Source: Kiritimatiellota bacterium
Lineage (GTDB): Bacteria > Verrucomicrobiota > Kiritimatiellia > JAAZAB01
Length of the DNA stretch: 64,000 nt
Direction of reading: 5' to 3'
NCBI GenBank assembly: GCA_026398415.1
Contig: JAPLSY010000084.1
Coordinates: 94,709 to 158,708, forward strand
Part shown: one piece after another, positions 1 through 37,329 of the stretch
Position numbering within the stretch: the stretch's first letter is position 1
Layout: each line of letters opens with the position of its first letter
Translations under genes and position numbers: made by a program
The notes under the pieces: generated by a model
Seen by the model: only the letters and a program-made list of their open reading frames with translations
The model's database searches: none
What the model was told of the DNA's origin: nothing

Positions 1-1
1 C

Positions 2-817: not shown

Positions 818-1128
818 AAATTAATGACTATATTTATGCTCCGATTTTTCCGGCCGCAAAGGCGCTAATCTATTGCACCGTCTTTAACATGCCAACCGCC
901 TTTTCTACAGAAGGAAAACAGAAAGGAATGCGCGCCGGGCGCATTACACGTCATGAAAAAAATATTTGCTTTCCGCTCAACGCCAACGTATATTGCTCCG
1001 TGTAGCTACACGATATTGGTTTTATCAACAATAGCATCACTAAGACTTCTGCAAAACGAATGTTCAGTGTGTGAGATTTACTAAACAGATGTCATTGTTC
1101 GAAAAACAATGCGAAAGTGAGGGGCACA

Positions 1129-2559: not shown

Positions 2560-2681
2560 GGTTAGACGCCATGCACATTATTGGCGGATGGAATAAAGAT
2601 ATTCATTTTGCATCGCGTCAGTTTGGCGCATCCGTAAACAACAATAATCTGCCTTAGGCCGGCTAAATTAGGAAGTTATAC

Positions 2682-21443: not shown

Positions 21444-22865
21444 CTAAAACTTCAGGAAGTACAATACCTGAATCGTTTTCTTTTCGCCAGCGCGTTCGTA
21501 GCCCACCAGCCCTTTCAGCAGGGACCAGCTGCCACCCGCTCCGCCGGCCGCGCGGTCAACCGCAAAGAGCGGAAACACCGAAATGTGCTTCGGGCCGTTT
21601 TCGGCCCGGCGCCAGCGGAACAAACCCCAAAGCAGTTCATCCTCTTTTACGTTCCCGCAGGACGCATGCGAATATAGCGTCCACAGCGCCGCGTAATTTC
21701 GATCGATGTACTCGTAATCCATAAAGGGAAACAGGCTGAGCACACGCAGCTGGAAGCGGTCGGGAGCGCTCTTGCTGGAAAACAGCGGCCAGACCTTGAG
21801 CGAGCGCGACACCATGTCCCACTGTCCCGGCGCTTCGCGCGACGGCTTGTGTTCGCTCGTATAATACAGGATCGGCATCAGCATGATCCGCGCGCGCTCC
21901 TCCAGCGTACTGTAACGCCGTGCCTGCCGGTAGAGCGGCCATAGGACAAAAGAGGAATCATTGCCCTCCATGGATTTGTGACCCCAAAGCGGCCAGAAAT
22001 ACAGTCGGTCCACCTCGCCGGAACTCCATTGGAACAACGGCCAGGGACAGTTCACTTCGCTTTTTTTCGTGCCCTTGGAAAAACGGGTCAAGGGCGGCAC
22101 GACCATCCAGGTTTCCTGGTCGGTCAGCTTGAGATGCCCAACCAGCGGAAACAATATATAGCCGCTCCCGGAAGACTTCGGATAACCATATTTTACCGAA
22201 GACCAAAACGGCCAGAGAATAAAGCGCTTTTCGTAATCCATCCGGAACCGGGTGATCCCGTAAATGGGGAGGACGCGAAAACGGTCATGGCCCCCACCCC
22301 AGGTATAGGAGACAATCGGCCACAACCAGGAGCGCGTTTCGGTCTCATTGGTCCGGTTATACATCGTCAGCGGGAACAGCACAAACCACGTTTCATCCCA
22401 ACCGAGGAAATCGCGAATAACGCCGCCAATCGGGACCACCGCCAGGTAGGGTTTGCCGTCCAGGCCGCGGCCCTGGAAGTAGAACGGGAAAAGACAGAAC
22501 CGATAACGGCCGTCCGGGTCAGTCACATCATAATCGTTCCGATACAAGAGCACCATGAATTGCCACATGCGCTGTTTATCGATCTGCTTATTTACCCAGA
22601 CCGGCCAAAGCATATCGGTCTCACTGCGCTTAAGGTCGGGATCATCAATCGAGCTGTAGAGCGGGTGCACCGCCCGGAACACATGTTCACCGGGCGCCTG
22701 GTTCCATTCCAGGAACGGCCCCAAAGCCCGCCAGCGCGAGTTACCGAACACGTCTGTATCGCTCGAGAACAGCGGCGCAAAATCCACATTTGCCGCGCCG
22801 GCAAGCATTGCCGTAAAAATAACGACCGGAAAAATCACGAGCCGCAGATAGCGCCCAAAGTTCAT
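21444..22865 (-). CDS. Trp/Phe-rich secreted hypothetical protein (first gene of the mla operon)
   Basis: Signal peptide. 473 aa with repeated W-x-x-F/W-P-L motifs and no recognisable catalytic motif. Confidence 0.45.
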   Translation of the reverse strand: MNFGRYLRLVIFPVVIFTAMLAGAANVDFAPLFSSDTDVFGNSRWRALGPFLEWNQAPGEHVFRAVHPLYSSIDDPDLKRSETDMLWPVWVNKQIDKQRMWQFMVLLYRNDYDVTDPDGRYRFCLFPFYFQGRGLDGKPYLAVVPIGGVIRDFLGWDETWFVLFPLTMYNRTNETETRSWLWPIVSYTWGGGHDRFRVLPIYGITRFRMDYEKRFILWPFWSSVKYGYPKSSGSGYILFPLVGHLKLTDQETWMVVPPLTRFSKGTKKSEVNCPWPLFQWSSGEVDRLYFWPLWGHKSMEGNDSSFVLWPLYRQARRYSTLEERARIMLMPILYYTSEHKPSREAPGQWDMVSRSLKVWPLFSSKSAPDRFQLRVLSLFPFMDYEYIDRNYAALWTLYSHASCGNVKEDELLWGLFRWRRAENGPKHISVFPLFAVDRAAGGAGGSWSLLKGLVGYERAGEKKTIQVLYFLKF

Positions 22866-23136
22866 GGGGCAAGACTATACCACATCCCCGGTTTTTGACC
22901 ATAGTAACGAATTAATTTTCTTTCATTCGGCGACAAGTTCCAGTATTTGATTAGCACTTTCAGCATACAGAACGGCGAAAAAACAGGAAAATCAGGCGGC
23001 GGAATCATGCAAAGGAAAACATCACACAAAGGTCACAAAGCACACAAAGACCGGATTCCAACATCATAAACTTTGCGTCTTGGTGCCTTTGTGTGAAAAA
23101 TATCCGAATTCGACTCGCTGCCTGGAAAAACATCTC

Positions 23137-24255
23137 ATGAATGACACTCTTCAACGGAAAGCCGACCTGGATACCCCATGCCTGGCGCTGGATCTGGATA
23201 TCCTGGACCAGAACCTTCGGAAAATGCAGGCCCTGACACAACGCGCCGGCAAGCATCTGCGACCGCATGCCAAGACGCATAAATGCTCGACATTGGCCCG
23301 GCGCCAAATGGAGGCCGGCGCCATCGGCATCTGCACGGCCAAGGTATCGGAAGCCGAGGCCCTATGCCGGGCCGGCATCGCAAACATTCTTATTACCGGC
23401 CCCGTGGTGACGAAACAGAAAATCGCCCGGCTGGTGGCTTTGCGTGCCAAGGCGCCCGCCCTCATGGTGGTGGTAGATCACCCGGGCCCGATTGACCTGC
23501 TTAGCACCGCCCTGGGCGATCAAGGCTTAACCATGGATGTCCTGCTGGACGTGGATGTCGGATTGCATCGCACGGGCGTGCCACCGTCCATAGCAATCAA
23601 CCTGGCCGATCATATTCTGGACCATAGCAATCTCCGCCTGCGGGGCATTCAGGCCTATGCCGGCCAGATGCAACATGTCCGTTCTTATAACGAGCGCAAA
23701 AACGGCTCGCATCAATGCCTGCAACCGGCAATTGGAATATTTCGCGCCTTGCAGGCCAAGGCGCCAACCTGCACGGTATTCAGCGCTTCCGGTACGGGTA
23801 CATCCGATATTGACCTCGACATTCCCGAACTCACCGAATTACAGGCGGGATCTTATGTCTGCATGGATGCGGAATACCTGGCCATCGGATCGGCGGAAGA
23901 CAACAGCCGCTTTACGGCCTTCGGCCCGGCCTTGCGCCTGCTCACGACGGTGGTCAGCGTCAACCAGGATGGATATGTCACCGTAGATGCGGGTTTGAAA
24001 GCACTCTATCGGGACGGCGCCGTTCCGCAAATAATCAATCCGGAATATGCCGGCCTGCGGTATGACTGGTTCGGCGATGAATACGGGCGCATCACCGGTT
24101 CCGGTTCTGTCGGGATGCCGCCACTGGGCACCGTCCTGGAACTGGTAACCTCGCATTGTGATCCGACGATCAATCTCTTCGACCGGTATTATGTAACGCA
24201 AGGATCCAAGATTGTAGATACCTGGAGCATTGATCTGCGCGGCTGCAGTCAATAA
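23137..24255 (+). CDS. Alanine-racemase-domain PLP enzyme (D-serine deaminase-like / D-threonine aldolase family)
   Basis: The motif 'RPHAKTHKC' carries the PLP-lysine and is typical of the DSD1/D-TA family, followed by a C-terminal beta-domain. Confidence 0.6.
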   Translation: MNDTLQRKADLDTPCLALDLDILDQNLRKMQALTQRAGKHLRPHAKTHKCSTLARRQMEAGAIGICTAKVSEAEALCRAGIANILITGPVVTKQKIARLVALRAKAPALMVVVDHPGPIDLLSTALGDQGLTMDVLLDVDVGLHRTGVPPSIAINLADHILDHSNLRLRGIQAYAGQMQHVRSYNERKNGSHQCLQPAIGIFRALQAKAPTCTVFSASGTGTSDIDLDIPELTELQAGSYVCMDAEYLAIGSAEDNSRFTAFGPALRLLTTVVSVNQDGYVTVDAGLKALYRDGAVPQIINPEYAGLRYDWFGDEYGRITGSGSVGMPPLGTVLELVTSHCDPTINLFDRYYVTQGSKIVDTWSIDLRGCSQ

Positions 24256-24269
24256 TCCACTGGCCGCCG

Positions 24270-25409
24270 TTAGAATTGATGAACGCGGTCTTTGACGGCC
24301 TGGGTTTCCGCAGTCCCCACCCGACCGTGCGCATGCAGGGCGATATTATATAGCACACCGATCTCCAGCAGGGAAATGATCAGGCTGGAGCCGCCCGCGC
24401 TGATGAACGGCAGGGGCAATCCCTTGGTCGGCAGCAGACCGATGACCACCCCGATATTGATGACGGCCTGCAGGGTGATCATCAGGGTGATGCCAAACGC
24501 CAGTATCCGCCCGAACGTATCCGGCGCCCGCAGGCTGATCCGCAAGCCGCAGACAAAAAGCCCGGCAAACATCAGCACCACCGCCAGGGTGGCCGCGGCG
24601 CCCAATTCCTCGCCGATGATGGCGAAAATAAAATCAGTGTGCGCCTCCGGCAAATAGTAGTGCTTCTGGATACTGCCGCCCAGCCCCACGCCCATGGGGC
24701 CGCCGGCAATGAAGGCGTTGATTGCGCTTAGCAGTTGGAAGGAATAGGTCTGCGCATACTGTTCCGGATTTAAAAACGCCACGATCCGGTGCATGCGCAC
24801 GGGATCGCGCATGACGGCCACCGCGAACCCGCAGAAGCCGATGACGGCGAACACGGCCAGATAGGCCGCCCGCGTCCCACCCGCGTACAGGATCGCCAGC
24901 CCCACCACGCCGCAGAGCAGAGCCGTGCCAAAATCGGGCTCGATGAAGACCAGGCCGGCCACCAGCCCAATAATGACCAGCGGCGCTACGGCGCCCCGCC
25001 AGAACTCGCGCACATGCCATTTCTCGCGCGCCAGCCACCACGCCAAACCCAGGATCAGCGAAAACTTGGCCAACTCCGAGGGCTGGACACTGAGCATCCC
25101 GAGATGGAACCAGCGCCGGCTGCCGCCAATCCTGGAGCCGATGCCGGGAACCAGCACCAGCGCCAGGAGAGCAACCGACGCCACGAGGCAAACCAGCGCC
25201 AGGGGACGCCAGCGATGGTAGTCAATTTTGCAGGCCAAACCGCCCACGATCACGGCCATCAGAAGCCACAACGCCTGGCGCTTGACGAAATAATTCGGAT
25301 CATCGTAAAGCGCCACGGCCTTGATGCCACTGGTGCTGGCCAGCATAACGATGCCCAGGGCCAGCAGGAGCAGGACCAGAAGAATTAAAACGGTGGGGGT
25401 TTTCCACAT
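24270..25409 (-). CDS. ftsW: Peptidoglycan glycosyltransferase FtsW (SEDS family)
   Basis: SEDS core motifs (PSEL, GGSSL, 10 TM). It terminates the dcw-type cluster. Confidence 0.8.
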   Translation of the reverse strand: MWKTPTVLILLVLLLLALGIVMLASTSGIKAVALYDDPNYFVKRQALWLLMAVIVGGLACKIDYHRWRPLALVCLVASVALLALVLVPGIGSRIGGSRRWFHLGMLSVQPSELAKFSLILGLAWWLAREKWHVREFWRGAVAPLVIIGLVAGLVFIEPDFGTALLCGVVGLAILYAGGTRAAYLAVFAVIGFCGFAVAVMRDPVRMHRIVAFLNPEQYAQTYSFQLLSAINAFIAGGPMGVGLGGSIQKHYYLPEAHTDFIFAIIGEELGAAATLAVVLMFAGLFVCGLRISLRAPDTFGRILAFGITLMITLQAVINIGVVIGLLPTKGLPLPFISAGGSSLIISLLEIGVLYNIALHAHGRVGTAETQAVKDRVHQF

Positions 25410-25454
25410 TACCCGTCTCGGTCATCCGGGCACACTAAACGCGACCCGATTCGA

Positions 25455-25631
25455 TCATTGCTTCAATTTCCTGATAATGTGCCGTGCGAGATGTTCTTTG
25501 ATTTCGCGGTGACGCGGAATGGGCTGGCAAACGCCTGTCTGGAGATTTTGATACCAATCATGCCGTCCGCCGTGACGAATAAAAACGCAACCTGTCTTTT
25601 CAAGCTCACGAATCAGGTCATTTCTTTTCAT
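25455..25631 (-). CDS. hicA: Type II toxin HicA (YcfA-like mRNA interferase), 58 aa
   Basis: Manual translation of the minus strand gives MKRNDLIRELEKTGCVFIRHGGRHDWYQNLQTGVCQPIPRHREIKEHLARHIIRKLKQ. This matches the HicA pattern (G-x-H...P-x-H-x-E-I). The ORF is below the track's 60-aa cut-off. Its ATG overlaps the hicB stop (ATGA). Confidence 0.65.
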   Translation of the reverse strand: MKRNDLIRELEKTGCVFIRHGGRHDWYQNLQTGVCQPIPRHREIKEHLARHIIRKLKQ

Positions 25632-25819
25632 GCGAGTTGCAATTCCCCAACGTGCTTAACATTGGGTATCGCATTACTTGTGAGATCGGCATAGATATCC
25701 TTGAGATTTTCCTGTAATTCCTCAAAGGTCTCGCCCTGGGTCTGGTAATCCGGATATTCTTCCAGATAACCAAGCCACATGTCATCATCCTGCCAATAAA
25801 CATATCGAATGGAATCCAT
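25628..25819 (-). CDS. hicB: Type II antitoxin HicB-like (UPF0150 family), 63 aa
   Basis: 'YWQDDDMWLGYLEEYPDYQTQGETFEELQENLKD' is the hallmark of the short HicB/UPF0150 fold. It is translationally coupled to hicA. Local GC is ~47% against ~62% for the genome. Confidence 0.6.
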   Translation of the reverse strand: MDSIRYVYWQDDDMWLGYLEEYPDYQTQGETFEELQENLKDIYADLTSNAIPNVKHVGELQLA

Positions 25820-25881
25820 TTTTGTAGAACACTCAATAAATACGCCACAAGGAATTAATTGATTATGACCAAAGGCCCGCT

Positions 25882-26955
25882 TCAGGGAATCTTCAGCCGT
25901 TGCCCCACCTTAACCGTGCGATTGGCGCCAAGCTGATTGAGCTCGACGATTTCATCCACGGTCACCGCATACAGCTTGGCAACGGAATTGATATCCTCGT
26001 TCGGCTGAACAATGTGCGTAATGCCCGAATTGGCGATGGGCTTGGCAGGCACGGGCGCAGTGACCGGTGTCGCCGACGCGGCTGGTGCCGCCGGAGCAGG
26101 CTCTGCCGATGGTGCAGGTGCAGCAGCCGGTGCCGCCGACGCGGCCGGTGCCGCGGCTGGTGTAGCCGGCGCAGGCTCTGCCGATGGCGCGGGCGCAGCA
26201 GCTGGTGCCGCCGGTGCCGCCGGTGCGGCCGGTGCCGCCGGTGCGGCCGGTGCCGCCGGTGCGGCCGCAGAGGCAACCGTGGCTTCCGGAATGATCAGCT
26301 TCTGCCCGACTTTCAATTTGTCGCCCTGAAGTTTATTGGCTTCCCGCAAGGCACTGATTTTCGTGCCGCATTTCTTCGCAATCTTAGAAAGACTGTCGCC
26401 CTTCGCAACCACATACTCCTTACCGGCAACAGGCGCGGACACGGCTTCCGCTGTCGCAGGCGCCAACGACTCCGCCGGTGCGGCCACTTCGGCCGGAGCG
26501 GCAGTCTCAACTGCTTTGGCCTTTGCAGCGTGCTTGGCCGGCGCGGCCGACGCGGCTTTAATTTTCAGGTGTCCGGGCAGCATCAACTTCTGGCCGACGC
26601 GCAATTTATTTGGATCGGACAGCTTGTTCAGATCAGCAATCTCGCTCCGGGAAATTCCATACTGTTTGGCAATGCCCCCGATAGAGTCGCCGGACCGCAC
26701 GACATATTCCGTCGTTTCCGTGGCCTTAGTTAATTCCCTGGACTCGGACTTGGCGACCGGCGCCTTTTCCACTTGTTTCGGCGGCGGGTAATTTACGGCT
26801 TCCTTGGTCGTGGGCGGCATGGGCGGAGTTGTCGCTGCCGGAGGCGGGGTACCCGTTCGGGACGTGGTGCCGCACCCCTGGATAAAGAACAAAGCCCCGA
26901 GGGCGGCGCAGTGCAACATAACAACAACGGTAATTAACAAAGCTGACGTTTTCAT
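25882..26955 (-). CDS. LysM-domain peptidoglycan-binding lipoprotein with Pro/Ala-rich repeats
   Basis: Signal and lipobox (FIQGCG). Three LysM motifs (YVVRSGDSIGGIAKQYGIS..; YVVAKGDSLSKIAKKCGTK..; HIVQPNEDINSVAKLYAVT..) are separated by (PAAPAA)n low-complexity linkers. SD GGAGGAG precedes the Met at 26955. Confidence 0.7.
   Translation of the reverse strand: MKTSALLITVVVMLHCAALGALFFIQGCGTTSRTGTPPPAATTPPMPPTTKEAVNYPPPKQVEKAPVAKSESRELTKATETTEYVVRSGDSIGGIAKQYGISRSEIADLNKLSDPNKLRVGQKLMLPGHLKIKAASAAPAKHAAKAKAVETAAPAEVAAPAESLAPATAEAVSAPVAGKEYVVAKGDSLSKIAKKCGTKISALREANKLQGDKLKVGQKLIIPEATVASAAAPAAPAAPAAPAAPAAPAAPAAAPAPSAEPAPATPAAAPAASAAPAAAPAPSAEPAPAAPAASATPVTAPVPAKPIANSGITHIVQPNEDINSVAKLYAVTVDEIVELNQLGANRTVKVGQRLKIP
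26075..26270. repeat. Coding 6/12-nt tandem repeat (GCCGGTGCCGCCGGTGCGGCC)n encoding a (PAAPAA)n linker
   Basis: Direct reading: near-perfect 12-mer repeats over 26203-26268 and degenerate copies upstream. They lie inside the LysM gene. Confidence 0.8.
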
Positions 26956-26988
26956 TACTCCTCCTATGATGTTCAATGAGACCTGTTG

Positions 26989-27022
26989 TTTCCGCCGGAG
27001 GCGGATCCGCCTCCGGCGGAAA
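26989..27022. promoter_or_regulatory. Perfect 34-bp palindrome (TTTCCGCCGGAGGCG-GATC-CGCCTCCGGCGGAAA) about 35 nt upstream of the LysM gene start and downstream of murD
   Basis: Read directly. No U-tract on either side, so it is an operator or RNA stem rather than a canonical intrinsic terminator. Confidence 0.4.
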
Positions 27023-27117
27023 ATTCCTATGCCTTGAATAAACTACTTGCAAATATCCATCATCGCCCCGGCGGTGTCAAGTTTTTTTTCAACGGCTTTT
27101 TCAGCGGCCACCACAGC

Positions 27118-28464
27118 TTATGACAGCGCGCGAGTCGCGCTTATAAAACATTCGCCGCGTTCCTCAAAACTGCGAAACTGGTCGAAGCTGGCACAGGCGG
27201 GGGAAAGTAAAATCGTATCGCCCGGCCTGGCCTCCCGCCAAGCCTGCGCCACGGCCTGTGCCAGCGTTCCGCCCATCACGCAGGGCACCGTTCCGCGCCA
27301 GGCCGCAGCCATGGCTTCGGCCGCCCGGCCAATCAGGTAAACAGTCGCCACTTTTTCCGCCAGCAGTTCACGGGCCGGCTCATAGGATTCATGCTTGGGT
27401 AGCCCCCCGGCAATCAAACGGATCGGCCGTGGGGTCATGCACAGTGCCGCCAGCATGGCCGCCAGATTCGTGGCCTTGGAATCATTCACAAACCGAATGC
27501 CGCGCACCGCACCGACATTCTGCATGCGATGCGGCAGGGACTGGAAGACGCTCGCGGCCACCTCCAGAAAACGTCCCTCCACGCCGCAGGCCGAGAGCGC
27601 GGCGGCGGCCGCGGCGGCGGTCAGGCCCATGATCGCGTTAGCGAACAGCGTGCCACGTAATTCGATCCTTTCCCGGCCAAGCGAATTGTGAATCGCACCG
27701 GACTGATAAAAGAATTCTGCCGCCGGGCACACGCCCGTAGTCGGGCATACGCCCGCCGCAATCCAGCGATTGGGCGAACCGGCCAGGGAGCGAATCTCCG
27801 GCAGGATGTTCCGGTCCGTAATACCGGTATCCGCCGGCGTCATGCGCGTAAATAAGCGGGACTTGATCTGCCGGTAGGTTTGGAAATCCCCATGGCGGTC
27901 CAGATGATTCGGCGTCACGTTCAGCAAGACCCCCACGTCGGGACGGAAGGCCTGCACGGTTTCCAATTGGAAGGAACTGACTTCCAGCACCAGCCAGTCC
28001 AGTGAACGACGTTCTCCGACCACGGCGGAGACCGGCGGGCCGTAATTCCCGGCAATCGCCACCGAACAACCGGCTTGCGCCAGCGCTTCGGCGCACAGTT
28101 TAACGAGCGTGCTTTTACCATTCGAGCCGCTGATCGCCAACACCCGACAAGCGCAGCGGCTCCAGCCCAGTTCCAGTTCCGAAACCACCGGAATGCCCCG
28201 GGCCATAACGGACTTCACCGTGTCGGATGAGGTCGGAATGCCGGGACTGACAATGGCGATTTCGAAATCGCCCGGCGGCGGCGCCGTAACGCCCAGGCAC
28301 ACCTTGGCGCCCAGGGCCTGCAAAGTGGCAGCACACCGACGCAGGTCTTCCGAATCTCCGCGATCCATGACAACAACCTGCGTGCCCTCAGCCAGCAGGA
28401 GCCGGGCGGCGGCTTCCCCGCTGGCGGCAAGGCCGAGCACGAGGGCTGTTTGGTAATGTTGCAT
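27118..28464 (-). CDS. murD: UDP-N-acetylmuramoylalanine--D-glutamate ligase
   Basis: N-terminal Rossmann-like 'LVLGLAASGEAAARLLLAEGTQVVVMD', the Mur ligase central domain 'GSNGKST', and its position after mraY. Confidence 0.85.
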   Translation of the reverse strand: MQHYQTALVLGLAASGEAAARLLLAEGTQVVVMDRGDSEDLRRCAATLQALGAKVCLGVTAPPPGDFEIAIVSPGIPTSSDTVKSVMARGIPVVSELELGWSRCACRVLAISGSNGKSTLVKLCAEALAQAGCSVAIAGNYGPPVSAVVGERRSLDWLVLEVSSFQLETVQAFRPDVGVLLNVTPNHLDRHGDFQTYRQIKSRLFTRMTPADTGITDRNILPEIRSLAGSPNRWIAAGVCPTTGVCPAAEFFYQSGAIHNSLGRERIELRGTLFANAIMGLTAAAAAAALSACGVEGRFLEVAASVFQSLPHRMQNVGAVRGIRFVNDSKATNLAAMLAALCMTPRPIRLIAGGLPKHESYEPARELLAEKVATVYLIGRAAEAMAAAWRGTVPCVMGGTLAQAVAQAWREARPGDTILLSPACASFDQFRSFEERGECFISATRALS

Positions 28465-28465
28465 A

Positions 28466-28672
28466 TAACTGTTTAGGCTGTAGGCTGAAGACTGTTAGCG
28501 TATTTCAGAAAAACTGACACCCTTTTGCGCAGATCTTCTGGTAGGGCGAATCCGTCGGCTGACGGATGAACTGTCCTTTGTTTCACGGCTCAGCCTGAGG
28601 TTTACCCACCTTTGGCGGCGCCTTAGGCGACCAGGGCTTTGCCCTACCTACAGGCTAACAGCCTACAGCCTG
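28466..28672. repeat. Inverted-repeat-flanked ~200-bp element in the murD-mraY spacer (MITE/REP-like)
   Basis: The left arm AGGCTGTAGGCTG..CTGTTAGC (28473-28499) is the reverse complement of the right arm GCTAACAGCCTACAGCCT (28648-28670). The internal hairpin is CCGTCGGCTGACGG. The same CTACAGCC motif recurs at 61622-61655. Confidence 0.45.
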
Positions 28673-28704
28673 TCCACCTTGTGAATAGTTACGCGACTCA
28701 TAGA

Positions 28705-29829
28705 TCAGCGGATTTTCAGCAGGAGGACACCGATGAGCGCAAAAATGATGGAAATGATCCAGAACCGGATTGTCACTTGCGTTTCGCTCCAAGGCGCTTT
28801 CTTCAACTCGAAGTGATGATGAATCGGGGAACACACAAAAATACGACGGCGTTTCCATTTAAAGAAACCCACCTGCAGGATAACGCTTAAGGCTTCCAGT
28901 ACGAACACACCGCCGACGATAACCAGCGTCAGCTCCTGCTTGATCATCACAGCCACACAGCCAATGGCGCCGCCCAGCGCCAGACTGCCGGTATCACCCA
29001 TAAAAACAAGAGCCGGATGGCAGTTAAACCAGAGGAAGCCGAGGCAGGCGCCCAGCATGCATCCGCAGAAGACGGCCAACTCACCCGCTTCAGGCACATT
29101 AGGAACCTGCAGGTACGCCGCAAGCACGGCATGTCCGGCCACGTAAGCCATAAGCATGTATGCCAGCGTCACGGAACCGGCACAGCCGATGGCCAGTCCA
29201 TCCAGGCCGTCGGTCAGGTTAACGGCATTGCTGGCGCCGATCACGACCAGGGCCACAAACAGAAAAACGCATGCCAGGCACATTTCCGGAATCAACGGCG
29301 CTTTGAAAAAGGGCACCATCAACTGGCGCACATGATCGCGGGTGGCCGGCAGGACCAGCAGAACCCCTGTAAGGAGCACCACCCAGAGCGCCTGTAACAG
29401 CAGCTTGGTCCGGGCGCGCAATCCTTTCGAATCCCGCTTAACCGTCTTGATATAGTCGTCGGCAAACCCGATGGCGCCCATCGCGCACAAGGTCAGCAGG
29501 GCCAGCCAGAGAATGGCGCTGGTAAGCACGGCCCAGAGCAGGCAGGCGCCAACGATTGACAGGATAATAAGCAGGCCGCCCATGGTTGGGGTATTTTTTT
29601 TCTTTTCGCCGCGCAGGGTATCGAGTGCGGGCAGGTCTTCCTTATAGCGGTCACAGCCACAATAGTGGTCGCCGCCGCACAGGCGCGTCAGCCGGCGGAT
29701 GACCCAGGGTCCCAACACCAGGCTGATCAGGAACGCCGTGCCGGCGCCGGCCACAATCCGGACAGTAATGTATTGAAAAACGCGGAAATAGGAAATGTCG
29801 TCCGAAAGTAAATGGAGGTAATAAAGCAT
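28705..29829 (-). CDS. mraY: Phospho-N-acetylmuramoyl-pentapeptide transferase
   Basis: MraY signatures (KxxTPTMGG, DDxxD-like cytoplasmic loops, HHHFE, 10 TM). Confidence 0.85.
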   Translation of the reverse strand: MLYYLHLLSDDISYFRVFQYITVRIVAGAGTAFLISLVLGPWVIRRLTRLCGGDHYCGCDRYKEDLPALDTLRGEKKKNTPTMGGLLIILSIVGACLLWAVLTSAILWLALLTLCAMGAIGFADDYIKTVKRDSKGLRARTKLLLQALWVVLLTGVLLVLPATRDHVRQLMVPFFKAPLIPEMCLACVFLFVALVVIGASNAVNLTDGLDGLAIGCAGSVTLAYMLMAYVAGHAVLAAYLQVPNVPEAGELAVFCGCMLGACLGFLWFNCHPALVFMGDTGSLALGGAIGCVAVMIKQELTLVIVGGVFVLEALSVILQVGFFKWKRRRIFVCSPIHHHFELKKAPWSETQVTIRFWIISIIFALIGVLLLKIR

Positions 29830-30011
29830 AACTATCTTAATATTAAACCGTTATACGATTGACGGTCTTCATTCATTTGGTGTAAGAATGACTATTCGAA
29901 CACCCAATATCCAACAAGGAATGGCCAATTTCCAAATGAATGAGTCTGTATTCCGTTGGGTATTTGGGTGTTGAGTGTTGGTTATTGGATATTCAACTGC
30001 TCTTTTTTGAT

Positions 30012-31406
30012 TCAAAGCACCCGTTCCTTCCACAACGCCAGTACCTTTTCCAAATGCTGGCCGCGGGAGGCTTTCACCAACACGGCATCGCCGGACTGCA
30101 GGCAGCGGCCCAGGACTTCGGCCGCCGCGGCATGGTCGTCACAGGGAAACACGCGCGCCGCGCTCACGCCGGCGTTCACGGCTGCGCGGGCGATAACCGC
30201 CCCCAGCGAACCGACCGTTATAATACCAGTCCATGGTCCCGGCGCAAGCGACTTCCCTAAGTCCCGGTGCCACTGTTCTTCCGAAGGCCCCAATTCCAGC
30301 ATACCCGCCAGCACCAACCAGCGCCCTCCCGTAACCGGCAATTCCGCGAGCGGTAATTCCGCAAAGGTCCGCAAGGCGGCGACCATGCTCACGGGATTGG
30401 CGTTATAGGCATCATTAATAATAGTCACACCGGCCACGACCTGCCGTTCCCAGCGCATGGGCGGGGAACGATATTGCTCCAGCGCGGCCCGGATTTCCTC
30501 CCAGGCCAAACCATGCGCGCGGCCCACGGCCGCGGCAAACAGGGCATTGGCCGCGTGGTGCGCGCCCGGCAGGGGCGCCTGCAGGCGACAGATTTCGCCC
30601 GTCGCGCGTTCGCGGATTTCCATTTGGCCCTGCGCATCCGGAGGAAAACCTGTATAATCTGCCTTGCCGCTCAACGCCAGGGTAATGACCCGGTCCGGGG
30701 CGGCGGCGCGCAAAATTTCAAAATATGGTTCATCGCAACGCAGGACCGCCACACCCCCGGCAGGCAGGCTCTTGAGCAATGTGCTCTTCTCGGCGACAAT
30801 CGCCTCCACGGACTTAAAAAATTCCAGGTGCACCGGGCCAATGGTCGTTACCAGGCCCCAATCGGGCTGGAGCATGCGGCAGAGCGGCGCCAGTTCCCCC
30901 GGATGGTTCGTGCCAAGCTCGAAGACGCCGACACGGTCTTCCGTTTCCATCGCCAGCATGCTCAACGGCAAGCCTATCTCGTTGTTCCAGTTGCCCCGCG
31001 TGCGGGCAACCCTCAGGCGCTGCGCCAGGACATCGGCCACCATTTCTTTTACCGTGGTCTTACCGACACTGCCTGTGACGGCCACGATTGCAACCTGGTT
31101 CCGGCGGCGGTAATTAGCGGCCATATCCCGCAGAGCCTGCGCGGTATCCGGTACGCGCAACAAAGGATGGTCCTCACACAGCTTGACACCCGTATTTTCA
31201 CTGATCACGGCGCCGACCGCGCCCTGCGCAAAGGCCTCGCCGATAAAGCGGTGCCCATCGTATAATGGCCCGCGCAAAGCCACGAACAGGGCGCCACGGC
31301 CCAGCGTACGGCTATCGGTGGACACCCCCGCAATGGCGCCGGGCTGGCCAAAGCACCACTTTCCGCCGGTCCATTGCGCCACTTCCCGGGCATCGAAATT
31401 AGGCAT
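30012..31406 (-). CDS. murF: UDP-MurNAc-tripeptide--D-Ala-D-Ala ligase
   Basis: 'ALRGPLYDGHRFIGEAFAQGAVGAVI' and the Mur ligase 'GSVGKTT'. The start is trimmed to the Met that overlaps the murE stop by 8 nt. Confidence 0.85.
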   Translation of the reverse strand: MPNFDAREVAQWTGGKWCFGQPGAIAGVSTDSRTLGRGALFVALRGPLYDGHRFIGEAFAQGAVGAVISENTGVKLCEDHPLLRVPDTAQALRDMAANYRRRNQVAIVAVTGSVGKTTVKEMVADVLAQRLRVARTRGNWNNEIGLPLSMLAMETEDRVGVFELGTNHPGELAPLCRMLQPDWGLVTTIGPVHLEFFKSVEAIVAEKSTLLKSLPAGGVAVLRCDEPYFEILRAAAPDRVITLALSGKADYTGFPPDAQGQMEIRERATGEICRLQAPLPGAHHAANALFAAAVGRAHGLAWEEIRAALEQYRSPPMRWERQVVAGVTIINDAYNANPVSMVAALRTFAELPLAELPVTGGRWLVLAGMLELGPSEEQWHRDLGKSLAPGPWTGIITVGSLGAVIARAAVNAGVSAARVFPCDDHAAAAEVLGRCLQSGDAVLVKASRGQHLEKVLALWKERVL

Positions 31407-32874
31407 GACTGATTCCCAGACTTTCCCGCACGACCTGCCGGTCGTCAAAGGGGATAACGGTATTGGCAAACTCCTGGTAGTTTTCATGGCCCTTGCCGGC
31501 GATCAGCACCACATCGCCCGCCTCCGCCAGGGAAAGCGCGCGGACGATGGCCTCGTGGCGGTCCTCGACGACTTCCACGTTGTCGCTTTGCCTGCATCCC
31601 GCGCGGATCTGGGCAATGATCTCGATCGGGTTTTCCTTGCGGGGATTATCGGACGTCAGCAGAACATAATCGGCCAGGCGCGTGGCCACGGCGCCCATGA
31701 GCGGCCGCTTTTTACAATCGCGATTACCGCCGCATCCGAAAACCACGATGAGCTTGCCCGGCGTGATCGCGCGCAATGTGGACAGCACGTTATGCAAGGC
31801 ATCCTCCGTATGCGCATAATCCACGAACACCTGGAACCCGCCCGCAATTGAAATCTCCTCCAACCGACCGGGAACGGCCATCATCTGGGACACCACCCGG
31901 GCCGCGCGCGCCAGCGGCACACCGGCGACTCCCGCCGCGGCTAAGGCCGCCAGCGCGTTACTGACATTGTAATGGCCCAGGAGTTTCAGCTTGACCTGGG
32001 CTTCGCCCCAGGGACTATGCACGTCAAAGACACTGCCGGCGGATGTGATCTGCAGATTGACGGCGCGCACGGCGGCTTCCTGGCCGGTGGCATAAGTGAT
32101 CAGGTCAGCCTCGAGCGGCACGTCCTGGACCAACTCACGGCCGTAAGGATCATCCAGGTTGACCACCGCCACCGGTTTTTTCCGACACCGGTTCAAACTC
32201 CGGAATAACAACGTCTTGGCTTGAAAATAATTTTCCTTCGTCGCATGGTAATCGAGGTGATCGTGCGTCAGGTTGGTAAATACGGCAATATCGAAATCAA
32301 CACCCCCGACACGCTTCTGGATCAACGCGTGCGACGAGACCTCCATGACGGCACTCCGGCAACCGACATGCACCATCTGGGCCAGCATATCCTGCAGGTC
32401 AACGGATTCAGGGGTTGTACGGCTGGCCGGAATCGTGCGGTCGCCGATTTCGTAGGCCACCGTACCGATCAGACCAGTGCGGCGGCCGGCATCGGTAAAA
32501 ATATCCCGCAACATAAATGCCGTGGTGGTTTTGCCATTGGTGCCCGTGATGCCAACCACCTGCAGACTAGCCGAGGGGTTATTATAAAACGCGGCGGCAA
32601 GCTCCGCCATGGCAGCCCGCGGATCGCTGACACGGATAAAGATCGCGGAACCGTGGCTGACCGGGGCGGCCTGGTCCGAGACCACGGCTGCGGCCCCCCG
32701 CGTCAACGCATCCTGGACAAAATGGTTTCCATCCTGGTGTTGGCCAGGCAGGGCAAAGAACATAAACCCCGGTTTGATCTTGCGCGAGTCATACGCCAAA
32801 CCCTTGATATCCGGATCCCCTGACCCGCCGACCGCCAGCGGTTTGATGACTGTGAGCAGTGTGTTTAGTTTCAT
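31399..32874 (-). CDS. murE: UDP-MurNAc-L-Ala-D-Glu--2,6-diaminopimelate ligase
   Basis: 'GITGTNGKTTT' and the DAP-specificity motif 'DNPR'. Confidence 0.85.
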   Translation of the reverse strand: MKLNTLLTVIKPLAVGGSGDPDIKGLAYDSRKIKPGFMFFALPGQHQDGNHFVQDALTRGAAAVVSDQAAPVSHGSAIFIRVSDPRAAMAELAAAFYNNPSASLQVVGITGTNGKTTTAFMLRDIFTDAGRRTGLIGTVAYEIGDRTIPASRTTPESVDLQDMLAQMVHVGCRSAVMEVSSHALIQKRVGGVDFDIAVFTNLTHDHLDYHATKENYFQAKTLLFRSLNRCRKKPVAVVNLDDPYGRELVQDVPLEADLITYATGQEAAVRAVNLQITSAGSVFDVHSPWGEAQVKLKLLGHYNVSNALAALAAAGVAGVPLARAARVVSQMMAVPGRLEEISIAGGFQVFVDYAHTEDALHNVLSTLRAITPGKLIVVFGCGGNRDCKKRPLMGAVATRLADYVLLTSDNPRKENPIEIIAQIRAGCRQSDNVEVVEDRHEAIVRALSLAEAGDVVLIAGKGHENYQEFANTVIPFDDRQVVRESLGISHA

Positions 32875-32899
32875 GATGGTCGCGCTTTTTCTCCGTTCT

Positions 32900-33062
32900 G
32901 AAGGCCCCGAAGCGGGGCAAATTTGCCGTTCTCTCGAACGGCCTCTACAACGATCTGCCTGCCCGAGCTCGGCCAGGGGTGTAGCCGCGGTTCGTTAGAA
33001 CCGCTATGTTTTAAAATTCCTTAGCATTAAATCGGGCCCCGATCCGGATCGGGGCCACCTCA
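32900..33062. other. Structured 200-bp ftsI-murE spacer with three GC-rich hairpins
   Basis: Three hairpins are visible: GCCCCGAAGCGGGGC (~32906), GCGGTTCGTTAGAACCGC (~32985) and GGGCCCCGATCCGGATCGGGGCC (~33039). They lie between genes that are normally overlapping or adjacent. Confidence 0.45.
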
Positions 33063-33077
33063 ATTCACAACTTACAA

Positions 33078-34868
33078 TCAAATTCCAAGGTTCGCATCCG
33101 GCCCGGGCCGACCGGCCACGGCGGCATCGCCCTGGGGTGGACACCTCCACTGGGGCGCAATATCCAGGTACCGCACGGATTGTTCGGCAATTTCCTTGAA
33201 CACCGGCCCGGCCACGTACCCGCCGGTGCGCACATCGTTGCTGGGTTCATCCAAGACCACGATGATCGCGAGCTGAGGATCCTCGGCCGGAATAAATCCC
33301 ATGAAGGAGGACATGTTCAGCGTATCGGAATAGCCACCCGGGATGGCCTTCTGGGCGGTGCCGGTTTTGCCGCCTACGTTATAGCCTTCGACCCGGGCAC
33401 GGGTGCCCGTGCCGCCTTCTTCGGTGACACGGACCAGCAGACTTTTCATGAGCCGAGCCGTATCCGGGCGGATGGGCTGGCTGACGGCTACCGGCACCGA
33501 CTGATATAGCACACGCCCATCCGTGTCCGTAACCTGTTGGATAATGTACGGCTTCATACGCACCCCATCGTTGGCAATGGCACAGAGCACCCCCAGCATT
33601 TGCAAAGCGGTAACCGCCACTTCATGGCCGATGGCAATCCGCGTCGTCGAAATGGCGGTCCATTTCGAGACGGGATACAGCAAGCCGGTCTCCTCGCCCG
33701 GCAATTCGATGCCGGTGCATTCGCCAATGCCAAATTGCTTTAAGTAGGCATATAGGCGCGCATTGCCCAGGAGCACGGCGATTTTGGCCGCGCCGATATT
33801 GCTGGATTTTTTGATGATATCGGCCACTGAAAGATTGCCATAGGGATGGAAATCGTGTAAGGGACGCCGCTGGTAAAACCAGGTGCCGTTTTCACAATCG
33901 AATATCTGGGCGGGCGTCACCAGTTTTTCATTCAGGGCAGCCGCCACGACGGTGACCTTGAACGTGGACCCCGGCTCGTAATTGTTGGCAATACAGCGAT
34001 TGCGCATGGCATCCGGCGCCGTCGCCCGAAACGCACGCGGATCGAAAGTTGGGATATTGGCCATCGCCAGGATTTCGCCCGTGCGCACGCGCTCGACGAT
34101 CGCCCAGGCCGCCGTAGCCCGCTGTTCGCGCACGGCAGTTTCCAACGCGCGCTCGACGATATACTGCACATACTGATCGATCGTCAGCGTGACATTGGCG
34201 CCGGGGCACGACTTTATTTCCAGCAGGCGGCGGTCGTACAGTTCGCGGCGGTGGCCGTCCCGCTCACTGACCAGCAACCCCGGCACACCCCGCAGATAAC
34301 GGTCCCAGCGCTGTTCGATCCCGGCGCAGCCGTTACGCTCCGGTTCCAAGTTGACGTACCCGAGCACATGACACAGGCTGGCGCCGCGCGGATACGAGCG
34401 CATCATGATGTCCTGCAGGAACACGCCGGGCAATTTCGCGCGCAACAGGGCCTCGGCCTGATCGTCCTCAAGCACATGGCCGAACCCGGCGACATAGATA
34501 AACTGCCGCTCCGGCCGGTTAATCCGGTCCATGAGCACACGCGGCTCCACATTCAGGATCCGGCCGATGGTTTCGGCCACGGTCTGGACATTGCGGTTGC
34601 TGGCAATTTCGGCAGGACTGGCGCATAATTCTTTTTTTACCAGATCCAGGGCCAGCACGTTACCGTTACGATCCAGGATTTTTCCGCGACCCACCGCCAG
34701 CCTTTCCCGGAACTGACGCATGGCAGTGATCCGGGTGCCGCGATCCACACCGGGACCAAGGTGAAAATGCAGATAGACCAAGCGGGTGCTGACGCCGGCC
34801 AACGCCAGCATCATAAGTATAGCCAAACCGATCAGGCGGTTCCTATATCTCCGTTCAATCATTCGCAA
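33078..34868 (-). CDS. ftsI: Peptidoglycan D,D-transpeptidase FtsI (class B PBP)
   Basis: N-terminal TM and dimerisation domain. Transpeptidase motifs STFK (GSTFKVT), SSN (SSNIG) and KTGT (GKTGTAQ). Confidence 0.85.
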   Translation of the reverse strand: MRMIERRYRNRLIGLAILMMLALAGVSTRLVYLHFHLGPGVDRGTRITAMRQFRERLAVGRGKILDRNGNVLALDLVKKELCASPAEIASNRNVQTVAETIGRILNVEPRVLMDRINRPERQFIYVAGFGHVLEDDQAEALLRAKLPGVFLQDIMMRSYPRGASLCHVLGYVNLEPERNGCAGIEQRWDRYLRGVPGLLVSERDGHRRELYDRRLLEIKSCPGANVTLTIDQYVQYIVERALETAVREQRATAAWAIVERVRTGEILAMANIPTFDPRAFRATAPDAMRNRCIANNYEPGSTFKVTVVAAALNEKLVTPAQIFDCENGTWFYQRRPLHDFHPYGNLSVADIIKKSSNIGAAKIAVLLGNARLYAYLKQFGIGECTGIELPGEETGLLYPVSKWTAISTTRIAIGHEVAVTALQMLGVLCAIANDGVRMKPYIIQQVTDTDGRVLYQSVPVAVSQPIRPDTARLMKSLLVRVTEEGGTGTRARVEGYNVGGKTGTAQKAIPGGYSDTLNMSSFMGFIPAEDPQLAIIVVLDEPSNDVRTGGYVAGPVFKEIAEQSVRYLDIAPQWRCPPQGDAAVAGRPGPDANLGI

Positions 34869-35256
34869 CGGACCTTAGAGGCTGCGAAAGCTGGGCCATC
34901 TGCCGGCTGTAGGGGGGCACATTTTCGGCGGCCAGTTCCGGTTCCTGCAGGCGGACCAGACGGCCTTCTTCCGGCCAAATCATGGCGACACGGTTCTGGG
35001 CAAGCGCCTTTTCGATATTGGACGGCGACTTCAGGGTTTCCCATTTCCACAATTCGTAATCATACCGTTTCTGGATTTCCGCGCGCTGTTGTTCCGAAAA
35101 TTTAATCCGGCTACCCAGGGCCTGGCCGCGCGCATCGAGCCAGACGTACATGAGCATCAGGACCACAACGCCCATCAGTACCGCCGCCCAGGGTAATGCA
35201 ATTACAAAGCCTTCGGTTCTTTTGCGCCGGTTATGCTTGGCCATGATTGAAGTCAA
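34855..35256 (-). CDS. ftsL: Cell division protein FtsL-like (septum formation initiator family)
   Basis: 133 aa with a single TM (FVIALPWAAVLMGVVVLMLMYVW) and a periplasmic coiled-coil. It lies between rsmH and ftsI. Confidence 0.55.
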   Translation of the reverse strand: MTSIMAKHNRRKRTEGFVIALPWAAVLMGVVVLMLMYVWLDARGQALGSRIKFSEQQRAEIQKRYDYELWKWETLKSPSNIEKALAQNRVAMIWPEEGRLVRLQEPELAAENVPPYSRQMAQLSQPLRSVAND

Positions 35257-36172
35257 TCCTTTCGATTACACGCAGTTTGGCTGATCGCGATCTCGGGTTC
35301 CGTAAAATTTCTTCAGCGGAAGCCGTTAACGGCTTCCGCGTAAGCCAGCGCACAAGCGGCTGGGTTCCTTCCCAGCGTTCGCCCCCGGCCGGCAGGGACA
35401 TCCACCGGCCAATGTGCTCCTTCCCTATCCGTTTGACACAGCCGTCTTCCAGGCTGTGATAGCTCAGAACCGCCAGACGGCCCCCCGGTTTCAGCAAGTC
35501 GATGGCCGCCTCCAACCCCCCGGTCAGCGATTCCAACTCGCGGTTAACCGCCATTCGCAACGCCTGGAACGTGCGCGTGGCCGGATGAATCCGCCCATGC
35601 CGCGCCCCCAGTACGCGAACCACCAGGTCCGCAAGGCGCCCGGTGGTCTGGATCGCCCCCTGCCGACGTTCCCGCACAATTGCCCGTGCAATACGGCGCG
35701 CGGACGGCTCATCGCCCAGGGAACGAACGATCCCGGCCAAGGTCTCCTCGTCCAGCGAAGCAACCAAATGGGCGGCCGTTGTCGGCTGGCTCAGGTCCAT
35801 GCGCATGTCCAAGGGCCCGTCCTGCATAAAGCTGAAACCACGTCCGGCCTGGTCCACCTGCATAGACGACATACCCAAATCGAGGAGCACACCGTCCACC
35901 GTCTGAAGACCATGCCGTTCGGCCAGAGATTTCAGATCGGCAAAATTCCCATGTTCAAAGCGACACTGTGCCGACCAGGCCGCCAAAGTTTCATGCGCCG
36001 TCGCGATGGCGCTTGCATCGCGATCCAGCGCCAGCAAAAAGCCGCGCGTACCTAAGCGTTCCAGAATCGCGCGAGCATGCCCCCCACCCCCCACGGTACC
36101 ATCCACGTACGTGCCATCCGGCCGAATCGCCAGCAAGGCCAGGATTTCCTGCACCATGACCGGCGTATGCAT
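35231..36172 (-). CDS. rsmH: 16S rRNA (cytosine1402-N4)-methyltransferase RsmH (MraW)
   Basis: 'HTPVMVQE...YVDGTVGGGGHA' SAM-binding motif and 'LLDLGMSSMQVD'. The start is trimmed to the Met preceding HTPVM. Confidence 0.85.
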   Translation of the reverse strand: MHTPVMVQEILALLAIRPDGTYVDGTVGGGGHARAILERLGTRGFLLALDRDASAIATAHETLAAWSAQCRFEHGNFADLKSLAERHGLQTVDGVLLDLGMSSMQVDQAGRGFSFMQDGPLDMRMDLSQPTTAAHLVASLDEETLAGIVRSLGDEPSARRIARAIVRERRQGAIQTTGRLADLVVRVLGARHGRIHPATRTFQALRMAVNRELESLTGGLEAAIDLLKPGGRLAVLSYHSLEDGCVKRIGKEHIGRWMSLPAGGERWEGTQPLVRWLTRKPLTASAEEILRNPRSRSAKLRVIERIDFNHGQA

Positions 36173-36252
36173 GCGCGCCCTTTCTCCAGGCACCGGCCCG
36201 GCCCGCCGTCGTCCGGCATTAGCCGGGCTATGGCGGGCAGGCCGAAGCATCC

Positions 36253-36447
36253 TCAACGCAACGCAGCCATCGCCGGCATCGCGAGACGCATTTTGACTTT
36301 CATGACCTCAACATCGTAACAGGCCGAACAAAAGCCATGCGAATACACGATCTTCGTCTCGCTGGCTTGAAACGTGTATTGCCAGCCCTGGTCCGTCTTT
36401 TCACGACCGCAAACGCAACATTTCATGATGACTTTGTTACCGTTCAT
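36253..36447 (-). CDS. Small zinc-ribbon protein (64 aa, CxCxxC...CxxC), hypothetical
   Basis: A strong SD (AAGGAGG, 10 nt upstream of the ATG). Cys pairs 'KCCVCG' and 'FCSACY'. GC ~50% is below the genome average. It is inserted between mraZ and rsmH. Confidence 0.4.
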   Translation of the reverse strand: MNGNKVIMKCCVCGREKTDQGWQYTFQASETKIVYSHGFCSACYDVEVMKVKMRLAMPAMAALR

Positions 36448-36843
36448 GACGCGCCAGCCTCCTTTGCCGGGAAGCCATTAAAACCAAAGCATAGCTACAT
36501 AAGTAACGAAAATAATTTGCTGTTTGAAATCAGCGAAACCATCCGGCTGGCTGCGGAAGGCGCCGTTTCCTGCCGGCTCCGCGGTTCCAGACGCAGCCGA
36601 CGCGAATCACCCAAGGGCAGGATCTGCATGGTGTCTCCGCATGCCGCAGGACAGGCGTTCACCACCAGGGCGTGGTTGCCAAAACGCAGCGAACGCGCGG
36701 CCAGACCGGTTGCCGGCAACTGAAACCATTTGTCCGTGCGGCTGGCCCGCAGGGCGCCATTCACTGCCAGAAAACCTGTCATGCTCATAATCGTTCGCTC
36801 CATTTGTTGCGCGGGCCGGCGATCCGGCCGCCGTTATATTATT

Positions 36844-37329
36844 TTAGAAATCCAAATATCGTACAGCTTCGTCCATGGTCGTCGCATCGATGGATTCGGT
36901 AGACTGCTTCCATAATTCCGGATCCCACAATTCGAACCGGTCCCAGGCGCCCACGAGTTTCACCTGGTCGGCAATTCTGGCGCAGGCCAGCAATTCGTCC
37001 TTAATGCGGATGCGGCCCTGGGAATCCCAGGCCACCAAGTCGGAACTGGAGGCCAAAATGCGCGCAAAGAGCCGCGCCTTTTTATCGCCAATACCGATCT
37101 TGCGGAATTTATCCAAGCGCTTCGCCATTTCACGGGCCGGATAAACGTAGAGGCATTTTTCGTTGTTGAGCCCGGGCAGGACATAGAGGCTTTTTGGGGC
37201 GCCCACTTCCGCGCGCCAGATGGCGGGTATGGTGAGGCGTTTTTTGGGATCCAGCGCATGCAGGAAACTGCTGGCAAATCCCCCACTGCCCAGCACCGGT
37301 TCCGGTCGTTCTATGGCATGCTGTTCCAC
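36844..37329 (-). CDS. mraZ: Transcriptional regulator MraZ
   Basis: Duplicated MraZ/SpoVT-AbrB-like halves with DxxxR motifs (LDPKKRLTIP; WDSQGRIRI). SD AAGGGGGAT precedes the start. Confidence 0.85.
   Translation of the reverse strand: MEQHAIERPEPVLGSGGFASSFLHALDPKKRLTIPAIWRAEVGAPKSLYVLPGLNNEKCLYVYPAREMAKRLDKFRKIGIGDKKARLFARILASSSDLVAWDSQGRIRIKDELLACARIADQVKLVGAWDRFELWDPELWKQSTESIDATTMDEAVRYLDF

Follow-up and report, generated by a model that had tools for sequence, protein, structure and literature searches.

In a Kiritimatiellota bacterium (assembly GCA_026398415.1, contig JAPLSY010000084.1), a short, AT-rich gene pair, hicB and hicA, lies between a LysM-repeat protein gene and ftsW, within the gene cluster for division and the cell wall (dcw). 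We analysed positions 94,709–158,708 of the forward strand of this contig, a stretch of 64,000 nucleotides (nt) that is referred to here as the window; loci and assemblies compared with it carry L-numbers (L001, L082, etc.). The pair is very probably an intact type II toxin–antitoxin (TA) module of the Class 2 hicBA type, acquired horizontally as a cassette of ∼390 bp at the point where the LysM stop codon and the ftsW start codon overlapped, and held under purifying selection since. Both genes are on the minus strand and begin with ATG. hicB (25628–25819) encodes a putative short antitoxin of 63 amino acids (aa), which is predicted to adopt a partial RNase H fold of the HicB/UPF0150 kind and lacks a DNA-binding domain, and hicA (25455–25631) encodes a 58-aa HicA-family toxin, predicted to be an RNA-binding mRNA interferase. 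The TGA stop of hicB and the start of hicA share an ATGA overlap (25628–25631, minus strand; tcat in plus-strand letters). The LysM stop codon is 62 nt upstream of hicB, and ftsW begins 45 nt after the hicA stop.

The pair is set apart by its composition. Its guanine-plus-cytosine (GC) content is 45.2%, compared with 57.8% for the window, 61.8% for ftsW and 61.6% for the LysM gene; GC at third codon positions is 46–47% versus 64–82% in neighbouring genes, and only 1.3% of 365-bp windows are as low in GC as the pair. A preliminary description of this DNA had reported a low-GC hicB–hicA module between ftsW and the LysM gene, at ∼47% GC against ∼62%. Every coordinate and feature in that account is present, and its GC figures are close enough to the measured 45.2% and the ∼62% of the flanks. 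It had also placed the module inside the dcw operon. This is true of its position between LysM and ftsW, but the pair is near the distal end of the cluster rather than in its middle, since the cluster ends at ftsW. Hundreds of homologues of both proteins, at 70–97% identity, rule out chance open reading frames (ORFs), as does the Pfam score of HicA. An assembly chimera or artefact was likewise considered and rejected: independent assemblies (L178–L182) show the same order of hicB, ftsW and a convergent D-serine-dehydratase-like gene. GenBank holds both exact proteins: the entry named HicB family antitoxin is MCX6993609.1 and that named HicA family toxin is MCX6993608.1, both from a 175,879-bp contig of a Kiritimatiellota metagenome-assembled genome (MAG).

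The toxin is readily recognized by its family profile. HicA scores 41 bits with PF07927 (HicA_toxin), a family whose gathering score is 27, and its residues 4–56 align with profile positions 2–56 of 58. This family had been proposed as the check on toxin identity, and the predicted fold agrees with it. An AlphaFold2 model built with 27 homologues (predicted local distance difference test score, pLDDT, 91.3) has helices at residues 3–13 and 46–57 and strands at residues 15–20, 24–29 and 35–39, and this helix-strand-strand-strand-helix order corresponds, in the model, to a double-stranded-RNA-binding-like fold. When the model was compared with the PDB using Foldseek, the best seven matches were all HicA structures (6HPB_A, 6HPB_C, 6G26_F, 6G26_E, 1WHZ, 4P78_C and 4C26; TM-score by query, TMq, 0.64–0.84; root-mean-square deviation 1.7–3.4 Å), from Escherichia coli (6HPB), Burkholderia pseudomallei (6G26 and 4C26), Thermus thermophilus (1WHZ) and Yersinia pestis (4P78). 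The G-x-H motif is G22-R23-H24; H24 is invariant across the 27 homologues and pairs with the histidine of E. coli HicA in a profile alignment to 6HPB_A. The corresponding histidine of B. pseudomallei HicA is reportedly needed for toxicity, and by analogy with that protein H24 would have a catalytic role. Sequence searches were less informative. A phmmer search of PDB sequences with HicA gave chance matches only, a profile search of the same sequences placed E. coli HicA first but with E = 0.17, and NCBIfam contained no match to HicA or to the 63-aa HicB.

The 63-aa protein is, on moderate evidence, a short HicB/UPF0150-type antitoxin. The assignment draws on a sub-threshold UPF0150 match, the predicted fold, the conserved pairing with hicA and the names in source databases. 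The preliminary description had called it a HicB/UPF0150 antitoxin and proposed PF15919 as the check; that family gives no match, the one Pfam match being to PF21748 (UPF0150-like), below its cut-off. Among 28 HicB homologues, 68–95% identical to the window protein, 20 match PF21748 (best E 9.6e-07), and the homologues are named HicB family antitoxin or RNase H-like HicB family nuclease by NCBI and JGI. The AlphaFold2 model (pLDDT 91) predicts three strands (residues 6–11, 14–19 and 22–29) followed by a long helix (32–47). Its Foldseek neighbours are mostly HicB or UPF0150 proteins (2DSY, 3K6Q, 6G26_A/B, 6G1C, 6G1N, 6U0I, 4P7D, 6HPB_B and 1WV8), with TMq 0.45–0.66 and all E ≥ 0.55. HicB ends at residue 63, has no DNA-binding family match and shows no further domain in the model, leaving no room for a C-terminal helix-turn-helix (HTH) or ribbon-helix-helix (RHH) domain. 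A 63-aa HicB followed by a 57–60-aa HicA, with a 4-nt overlap, is also found in L082, L089, L091, L172, L177 and L186. Translational coupling of the two genes had been proposed from the ATGA overlap; the overlap is present as described, and nine of 11 independent lineages that carry the cassette elsewhere retain it. The HicB family as a whole is large: at E ≤ 0.001 it forms 1,571 clusters when grouped at 50% identity, and almost all of these have lengths of 60–110 aa.

These features place the pair within an established class. Gerdes (mBio 2024, PMC10865869) sorted HicA contexts into 14 classes, of which Classes 1 and 2 are the most prevalent and have a regulation that was left open. In Class 2 hicBA, hicB is upstream, HicB has 63–103 codons and no recognisable DNA-binding domain, and hicB usually overlaps hicA. 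The window pair has every one of these defining features of order, size and linkage. Its architecture does not differ from that of the Class 2 example in Campylobacter sp. RM12654 (MBZ7977437.1/MBZ7977438.1): the genes overlap, HicA is predicted to have the helix-strand-strand-strand-helix order, and HicB is predicted to have a partial RNase H fold. What differs is the setting of the window module, which is inside an essential operon (dcw), and its apparent lack of a promoter of its own. The classical HicAB systems (E. coli K-12, 6HPB; B. pseudomallei, 6G26; Y. pestis HicA3B3, 4P78) share the HicA fold (TM 0.73–0.84) and the conserved histidine, and the N-terminal domain of their HicB is of the structural type predicted for the window HicB. 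However, their toxin gene comes first, reversing the order seen here, and their HicB is ∼135–145 aa long and autoregulates the operon through a C-terminal HTH or RHH domain. Such a domain is missing from the 63-aa HicB of the window, which does not belong with the classical HicB of Gerdes classes 3 and 4. The stand-alone UPF0150 proteins TTHA0281 (2DSY) and TTHA1013 (1WV8) of T. thermophilus are, like the window HicB, short single-domain proteins, and they have the HicB N-terminal type of fold that is predicted for it; among the neighbours of the HicB model, 2DSY is first in rank (TMq 0.57) and 1WV8 43rd, at a very low sequence similarity (19–24%) and with a structural match that is not statistically significant. 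The gene family and its annotation are thus already known, and the pair is a typical member of a common TA class in an unusual place.

Comparison with relatives indicates that the pair was inserted into an older gene order. To place the junction in context, FtsW relatives and their flanks were taken from species-representative genomes and metagenomes, giving 137 scorable loci. A LysM gene is directly upstream of ftsW in 71 of these, at a distance of 3–559 nt, and murD-LysM-ftsW loci occur in MAGs labelled Kiritimatiellia, Verrucomicrobiota, Opitutales and Akkermansia, among others. The frequency of the LysM–ftsW order argues that murD-LysM-ftsW is native to this part of the Planctomycetes–Verrucomicrobia–Chlamydiae (PVC) group, where the LysM gene looks like a clade-typical extra dcw member. 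With the exception of L081–L084, hicA and hicB are absent from these LysM–ftsW relatives (about 65 more distant loci). In L001, whose FtsW is 76% identical to that of the window, nothing separates the LysM gene from ftsW, and their stop and start codons overlap in the sequence TAATG. Junction alignment and BLAST against L001 define an extra segment in the window of 473 bp (25413–25885, minus strand; GC 45.7%). The LysM stop codon now in use (TGA, 25882–25884) is at its left junction, and the old GTAATG is retained at its right junction. From this comparison and from its low GC, hicBA is evidently an insertion. The preliminary description had reasoned that an insertion would be excluded if all relatives carried the same two genes here at native GC; the pair is missing from some relatives, and its GC is not native.

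A search for repeats around the insert gave neither convincing terminal inverted repeats nor a long duplication of the target. A 5–6-nt imperfect duplication of the stop/start overlap (CTGAAG at the left, GTAATG at the right) can be seen by eye and is offered as a tentative observation. Rfam had no match in 24000–27500 at E ≤ 1. The insertion broke the ancestral stop–start overlap, leaving ftsW 45 nt past hicA, but tight LysM–ftsW coupling is not essential, given that gaps as long as 559 nt are tolerated here in relatives. It had been suggested that the module may affect ftsW expression or be addictive for the locus. Addiction of a locus that is already essential appears to be an unneeded explanation, and the sequences give no sign that the insertion harms or regulates ftsW.

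The inserted genes belong to a cassette that recurs elsewhere. The core of the cassette (25448–25839, minus strand; 392 bp) starts ∼20 nt before the hicB ATG, ends shortly after the hicA stop, and is 85–93% identical in nt sequence to copies at three unrelated loci. The copy in L085–L088 is 85.5% identical over the 392 bp and lies among small unannotated genes near yidC and recO. The copy in L172–L175, from MAGs labelled Verrucomicrobia, is 92.6% identical over the 365 bp of the two genes and lies between major facilitator superfamily (MFS) transporter genes and an acyltransferase/AMP-binding gene. The third (L176/L177) is 88.2% identical over 365 bp and adjoins a PemK toxin gene. More distant copies have other surroundings again, among them a TA island in Chromatium okenii, and the names of homologues that are at least 70% identical come from several phyla. 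The GC content of the module is 2–13 points below that of its flanks in all hosts examined. The breadth of these contexts indicates that the cassette is mobile and was acquired horizontally. A scan of IMG/VR viral contigs with the HicB alignment found no relative, which leaves a phage vehicle without evidence.

Copies of the cassette outside dcw clusters also reveal how the module decays. In 11 independent non-dcw lineages hicB is always intact; hicA is broken in four, by a premature stop in L085–88 and by frameshift or truncation in L184/185, L188/189 and L192. To judge from their sequences, these four lineages keep orphan antitoxins left after toxin loss. Loss of hicA with retention of hicB is the pattern expected if HicA is toxic and the two genes form a real TA pair. 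Against this decay elsewhere, the intact hicA of the window and of L082 stands out. Public annotation of hicA is uneven: the gene calls of L081, L084 and L178–L182 list hicB but not an intact 58-aa hicA, and those of L083 list a 46-aa ORF in another frame. Some gene callers thus miss the 58-aa toxin, and short ORFs beside small hicB genes are worth checking.

The insertion is evidently not unique to the window genome, being common to it and a sister species. Four independent assemblies (L081–L084, including the Kiritimatiellia bacterium GCA_041675295.1), at ∼85% nt identity, carry the pair at the same site with both junctions homologous. Between the window and L082, hicBA differs by 26 synonymous and eight non-synonymous substitutions, giving a synonymous divergence (dS) of 0.475 and a ratio of non-synonymous to synonymous divergence (dN/dS) of 0.06; the corresponding values for ftsW are a dS of 0.337 and a dN/dS of 0.18. 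The low dN/dS of hicBA, with a dS comparable to that of ftsW, points to strong purifying selection on both genes over roughly the time since the two lineages separated.

A closer relative presents a different arrangement. L092, a 2.1-kb metagenome contig (Ga0075121_1028510), has a 5′ part of ftsW that is 92.0% identical to the window (672 nt), versus 87.6% for L082. At the same LysM/ftsW junction, L092 carries an unrelated element of ∼225 nt (1215–1455) that has no copy in the window. The element has inverted ends made of GTGTTCR heptamers, a very stable predicted fold (−87 kcal/mol, z = −4.9) and a flanking duplicated copy of the ftsW start (A[A/T]GTGGAAAACTC), and it looks like a miniature inverted-repeat element. 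The presence of a different insert at this junction in L092 marks it as a recurrent insertion site, or hot spot, and the absence of the pair shows that hicBA is dispensable. In the simplest history, the pair would have been gained once, after the L001 lineage had split off, and then lost or replaced in the L092 lineage; this relies on 672 nt of ftsW, where recombination is possible.

Examination of the sequences upstream of hicB suggests that free and dcw-embedded copies are expressed differently. A promoter-like motif, TTGNNN-N17-TANNNT-N6-ATG, is present in five of the 11 non-dcw copies (L088, L091, L177, L183 and L185) and absent from both dcw-embedded lineages; among random positions of the same loci, 0.26% match a looser version of the motif. 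Since the spacers of L091, L183 and L185 are unrelated in sequence, it is the geometry of the motif, not its sequence, that is conserved. This N17/N6 geometry would set the start of the transcript at or next to the ATG, which suggests a leaderless hicBA mRNA in the free copies. L186 and L188/189 have GAGGAG 6–7 nt before the hicB ATG, accompanied in L186 by a consensus promoter farther upstream. In the window, the stretch homologous to the other cassettes starts just downstream of the −35 position and there is no matching −35. A degenerate remnant of the −10-like hexamer, TGTTCT (25826–25831, minus strand), is 6 nt upstream of the hicB ATG and has lost the key A at position 2. In L082 the hexamer reads CGTTCT, three bases are deleted, and GGAG is present 9 nt before the ATG. 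A scan found no sigma-70-like site upstream of hicB, though a sigma-70-type consensus may not fit the promoters of this phylum, and no terminator-like site was found on the minus strand between LysM and ftsW. Most likely, to judge from these sequences, the dcw-embedded copies no longer use a promoter of their own and are transcribed with the dcw mRNA by read-through. Two other candidate elements were rejected: a palindrome upstream of hicB (25846–25867), considered as an operator, is not conserved in L082, and a promoter-like match inside hicB (25785–25756, nine of 12 positions) is within chance, with three such sites found versus 1.8 expected.

Taken with what is known of the family, these data are best explained as follows. 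An AT-rich cassette of ∼390 bp would have inserted exactly at the LysM/ftsW stop/start overlap, at the distal end of dcw, in an ancestor common to the window genome and its sister species, and purifying selection would have acted on it afterwards. The cassette presumably encodes, first, a HicB antitoxin without a DNA-binding domain, translationally coupled to a putative HicA mRNA interferase. As in other members of the family, we infer that HicB would bind and neutralise HicA, and that depletion of HicB would leave free HicA to cleave mRNA and arrest growth. Being sense to the operon, with no terminator on either side and with its own promoter-like motif lost, the pair would be carried on the dcw mRNA together with ftsW. 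An extension of this scheme is that Class 2 hicBA modules use a constitutive leaderless promoter that the dcw copies have lost, so that TA synthesis is slaved to the division operon, and shut-off of dcw frees HicA and stops growth. We regard this extension as unlikely; if it were true, there would be a built-in link between the expression of cell-wall and division genes and growth arrest.

Several observations weigh against an intact Class 2 module that entered once and has been retained since. The sole Pfam match of the 63-aa HicB is PF21748 (UPF0150-like), at 17.6 bits under a cut-off of 27.3; nothing relevant was obtained with HicB in PDB sequence searches (chance matches with phmmer, none with a profile) or in NCBIfam, and no Foldseek match of its model has E < 0.5. 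Weak Foldseek E-values are usual for a query of 63 residues. L092, the closest relative found by ftsW, lacks hicBA, so the gain and loss history requires either loss or recombination and is unclear on this point. The window module is also slightly closer to the ectopic L172 copy (92.6%) than to the same-site copy of L082 (90.7%), and thus its descent is not cleanly vertical. The argument for promoter loss uses a sigma-70-type consensus that may not describe this phylum, and the window copy has no obvious Shine–Dalgarno sequence before hicB, so that its translation from a polycistronic mRNA is not explained. Finally, Class 1 and Class 2 HicAB pairs have never been tested experimentally (PMC10865869).

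The same observations bear on other readings of the locus. The position of the pair in the operon, in sense orientation immediately before ftsW, the loss of the promoter-like motif in both dcw-embedded lineages and the strong purifying selection across a species-level split might all be expected of a co-opted regulator, one in which the pair has been domesticated to bind or cleave the dcw/ftsW transcript, linking division to growth state, and no longer acts as poison and antidote. Proteins at least 90% identical, however, are encoded at unrelated loci, one of them a TA island beside PemK, which means that nothing in their sequence is dcw-specific; L092, L001 and all more distant relatives do without the pair, and no lineage-specific substitutions were seen at conserved positions. 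Such a role is highly improbable, the least likely of the readings considered here. Scarcely more credible is a neutral passenger in decay, an inactive leftover of a selfish insertion that is kept since deletion beside an essential gene is risky. The broken hicA genes of L085-88, L184/185, L188/189 and L192, the degenerate promoter-like motif of the window and the survival of the L092 lineage without hicBA at this site would all suit a decaying passenger, but both frames are intact in two lineages separated by a dS of about 0.4 with a dN/dS of 0.06, the ATGA coupling is kept, and so are all invariant residues, His24 among them.

A third proposal concerns only the biological role of the module and is compatible with its being an intact Class 2 pair. 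Here, HicA would be released in an abortive infection when a phage shuts off host transcription, and the place in dcw would be incidental. Phage defence was proposed for HicA-domain systems from their genomic contexts by Gerdes (2024, PMC10865869), and an antitoxin made from operon read-through alone would be expected to run out upon host shut-off. PADLOC, on the other hand, gives no match, no defence genes lie beside the pair in the window, and IMG/VR viral contigs yielded no copy of the cassette. We consider this role doubtful, yet the most plausible of these alternatives; selfish persistence is the other role that the module may have. An intact hicBA module, mobile in origin and retained under selection, remains the interpretation that we favour.

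The gene family adds nothing new, and the modest value of the locus is in its context. It offers a clean, datable case of a mobile TA cassette placed exactly on a stop/start overlap in an essential operon, with both genes retained under strong purifying selection across a species split, and a different element has struck this junction in the closest relative found. The difference in promoter-like motif between embedded and free copies also yields a testable idea about how a HicB without a DNA-binding domain is expressed, a question left open in PMC10865869.

The dcw cluster that received the cassette spans 24270–37329 on the minus strand in the order mraZ-rsmH-ftsL-ftsI-murE-murF-mraY-murD-LysM-[hicBA]-ftsW. 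Its dcw genes all have Pfam and NCBIfam support except ftsL, a membrane protein gene of suitable size (34855–35256) that is assigned by position and size only. Upstream of the insertion are mraZ (36844–37329), rsmH (35231–36256), ftsI (33078–34868), murE, murF, mraY (28705–29829) and murD (27118–28464), all on the minus strand. The upstream neighbour of hicBA (25882–26976, minus strand) encodes a protein with three LysM domains (Pfam LysM, E = 7e-43) separated by Pro/Ala-rich linkers, which derive from GC-rich tandem repeats around 26060–26270 (78% GC). The downstream neighbour, ftsW (24270–25409, minus strand), scores 371.7 bits against TIGR02614 (cut-off 337.5). The cluster ends here, and no murG-murC-ftsQ-ftsA-ftsZ continuation follows ftsW in the window.

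Beyond ftsW are a convergent D-serine-dehydratase-like gene (23080–24255, plus strand), a gene for a 473-aa protein without a Pfam match, and then mlaE/F/D. The D-serine-dehydratase-like gene encodes Ala_racemase_N and D-ser_dehydrat domains. It is absent from the sister species L081/L082, in which the gene for the 473-aa protein follows ftsW directly, and by this comparison its region appears to be a second lineage-specific insertion of ∼1.4 kb (22886–24268), adjoining the first. The 473-aa ORF (21444–22865, minus strand) has no Pfam match even at E = 0.01 and occupies the place where a canonical dcw cluster would be expected to have murG; in L001, a tblastn search of the 10 kb around ftsW gave no counterpart. 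At the other end of the L081/L082 loci (1–3390), a Wzy_C (O-antigen ligase-like) gene and two unannotated genes lie upstream of murD, where the window has mraY. These differing genes upstream of murD indicate that the dcw cluster has been broken at different points in close relatives.

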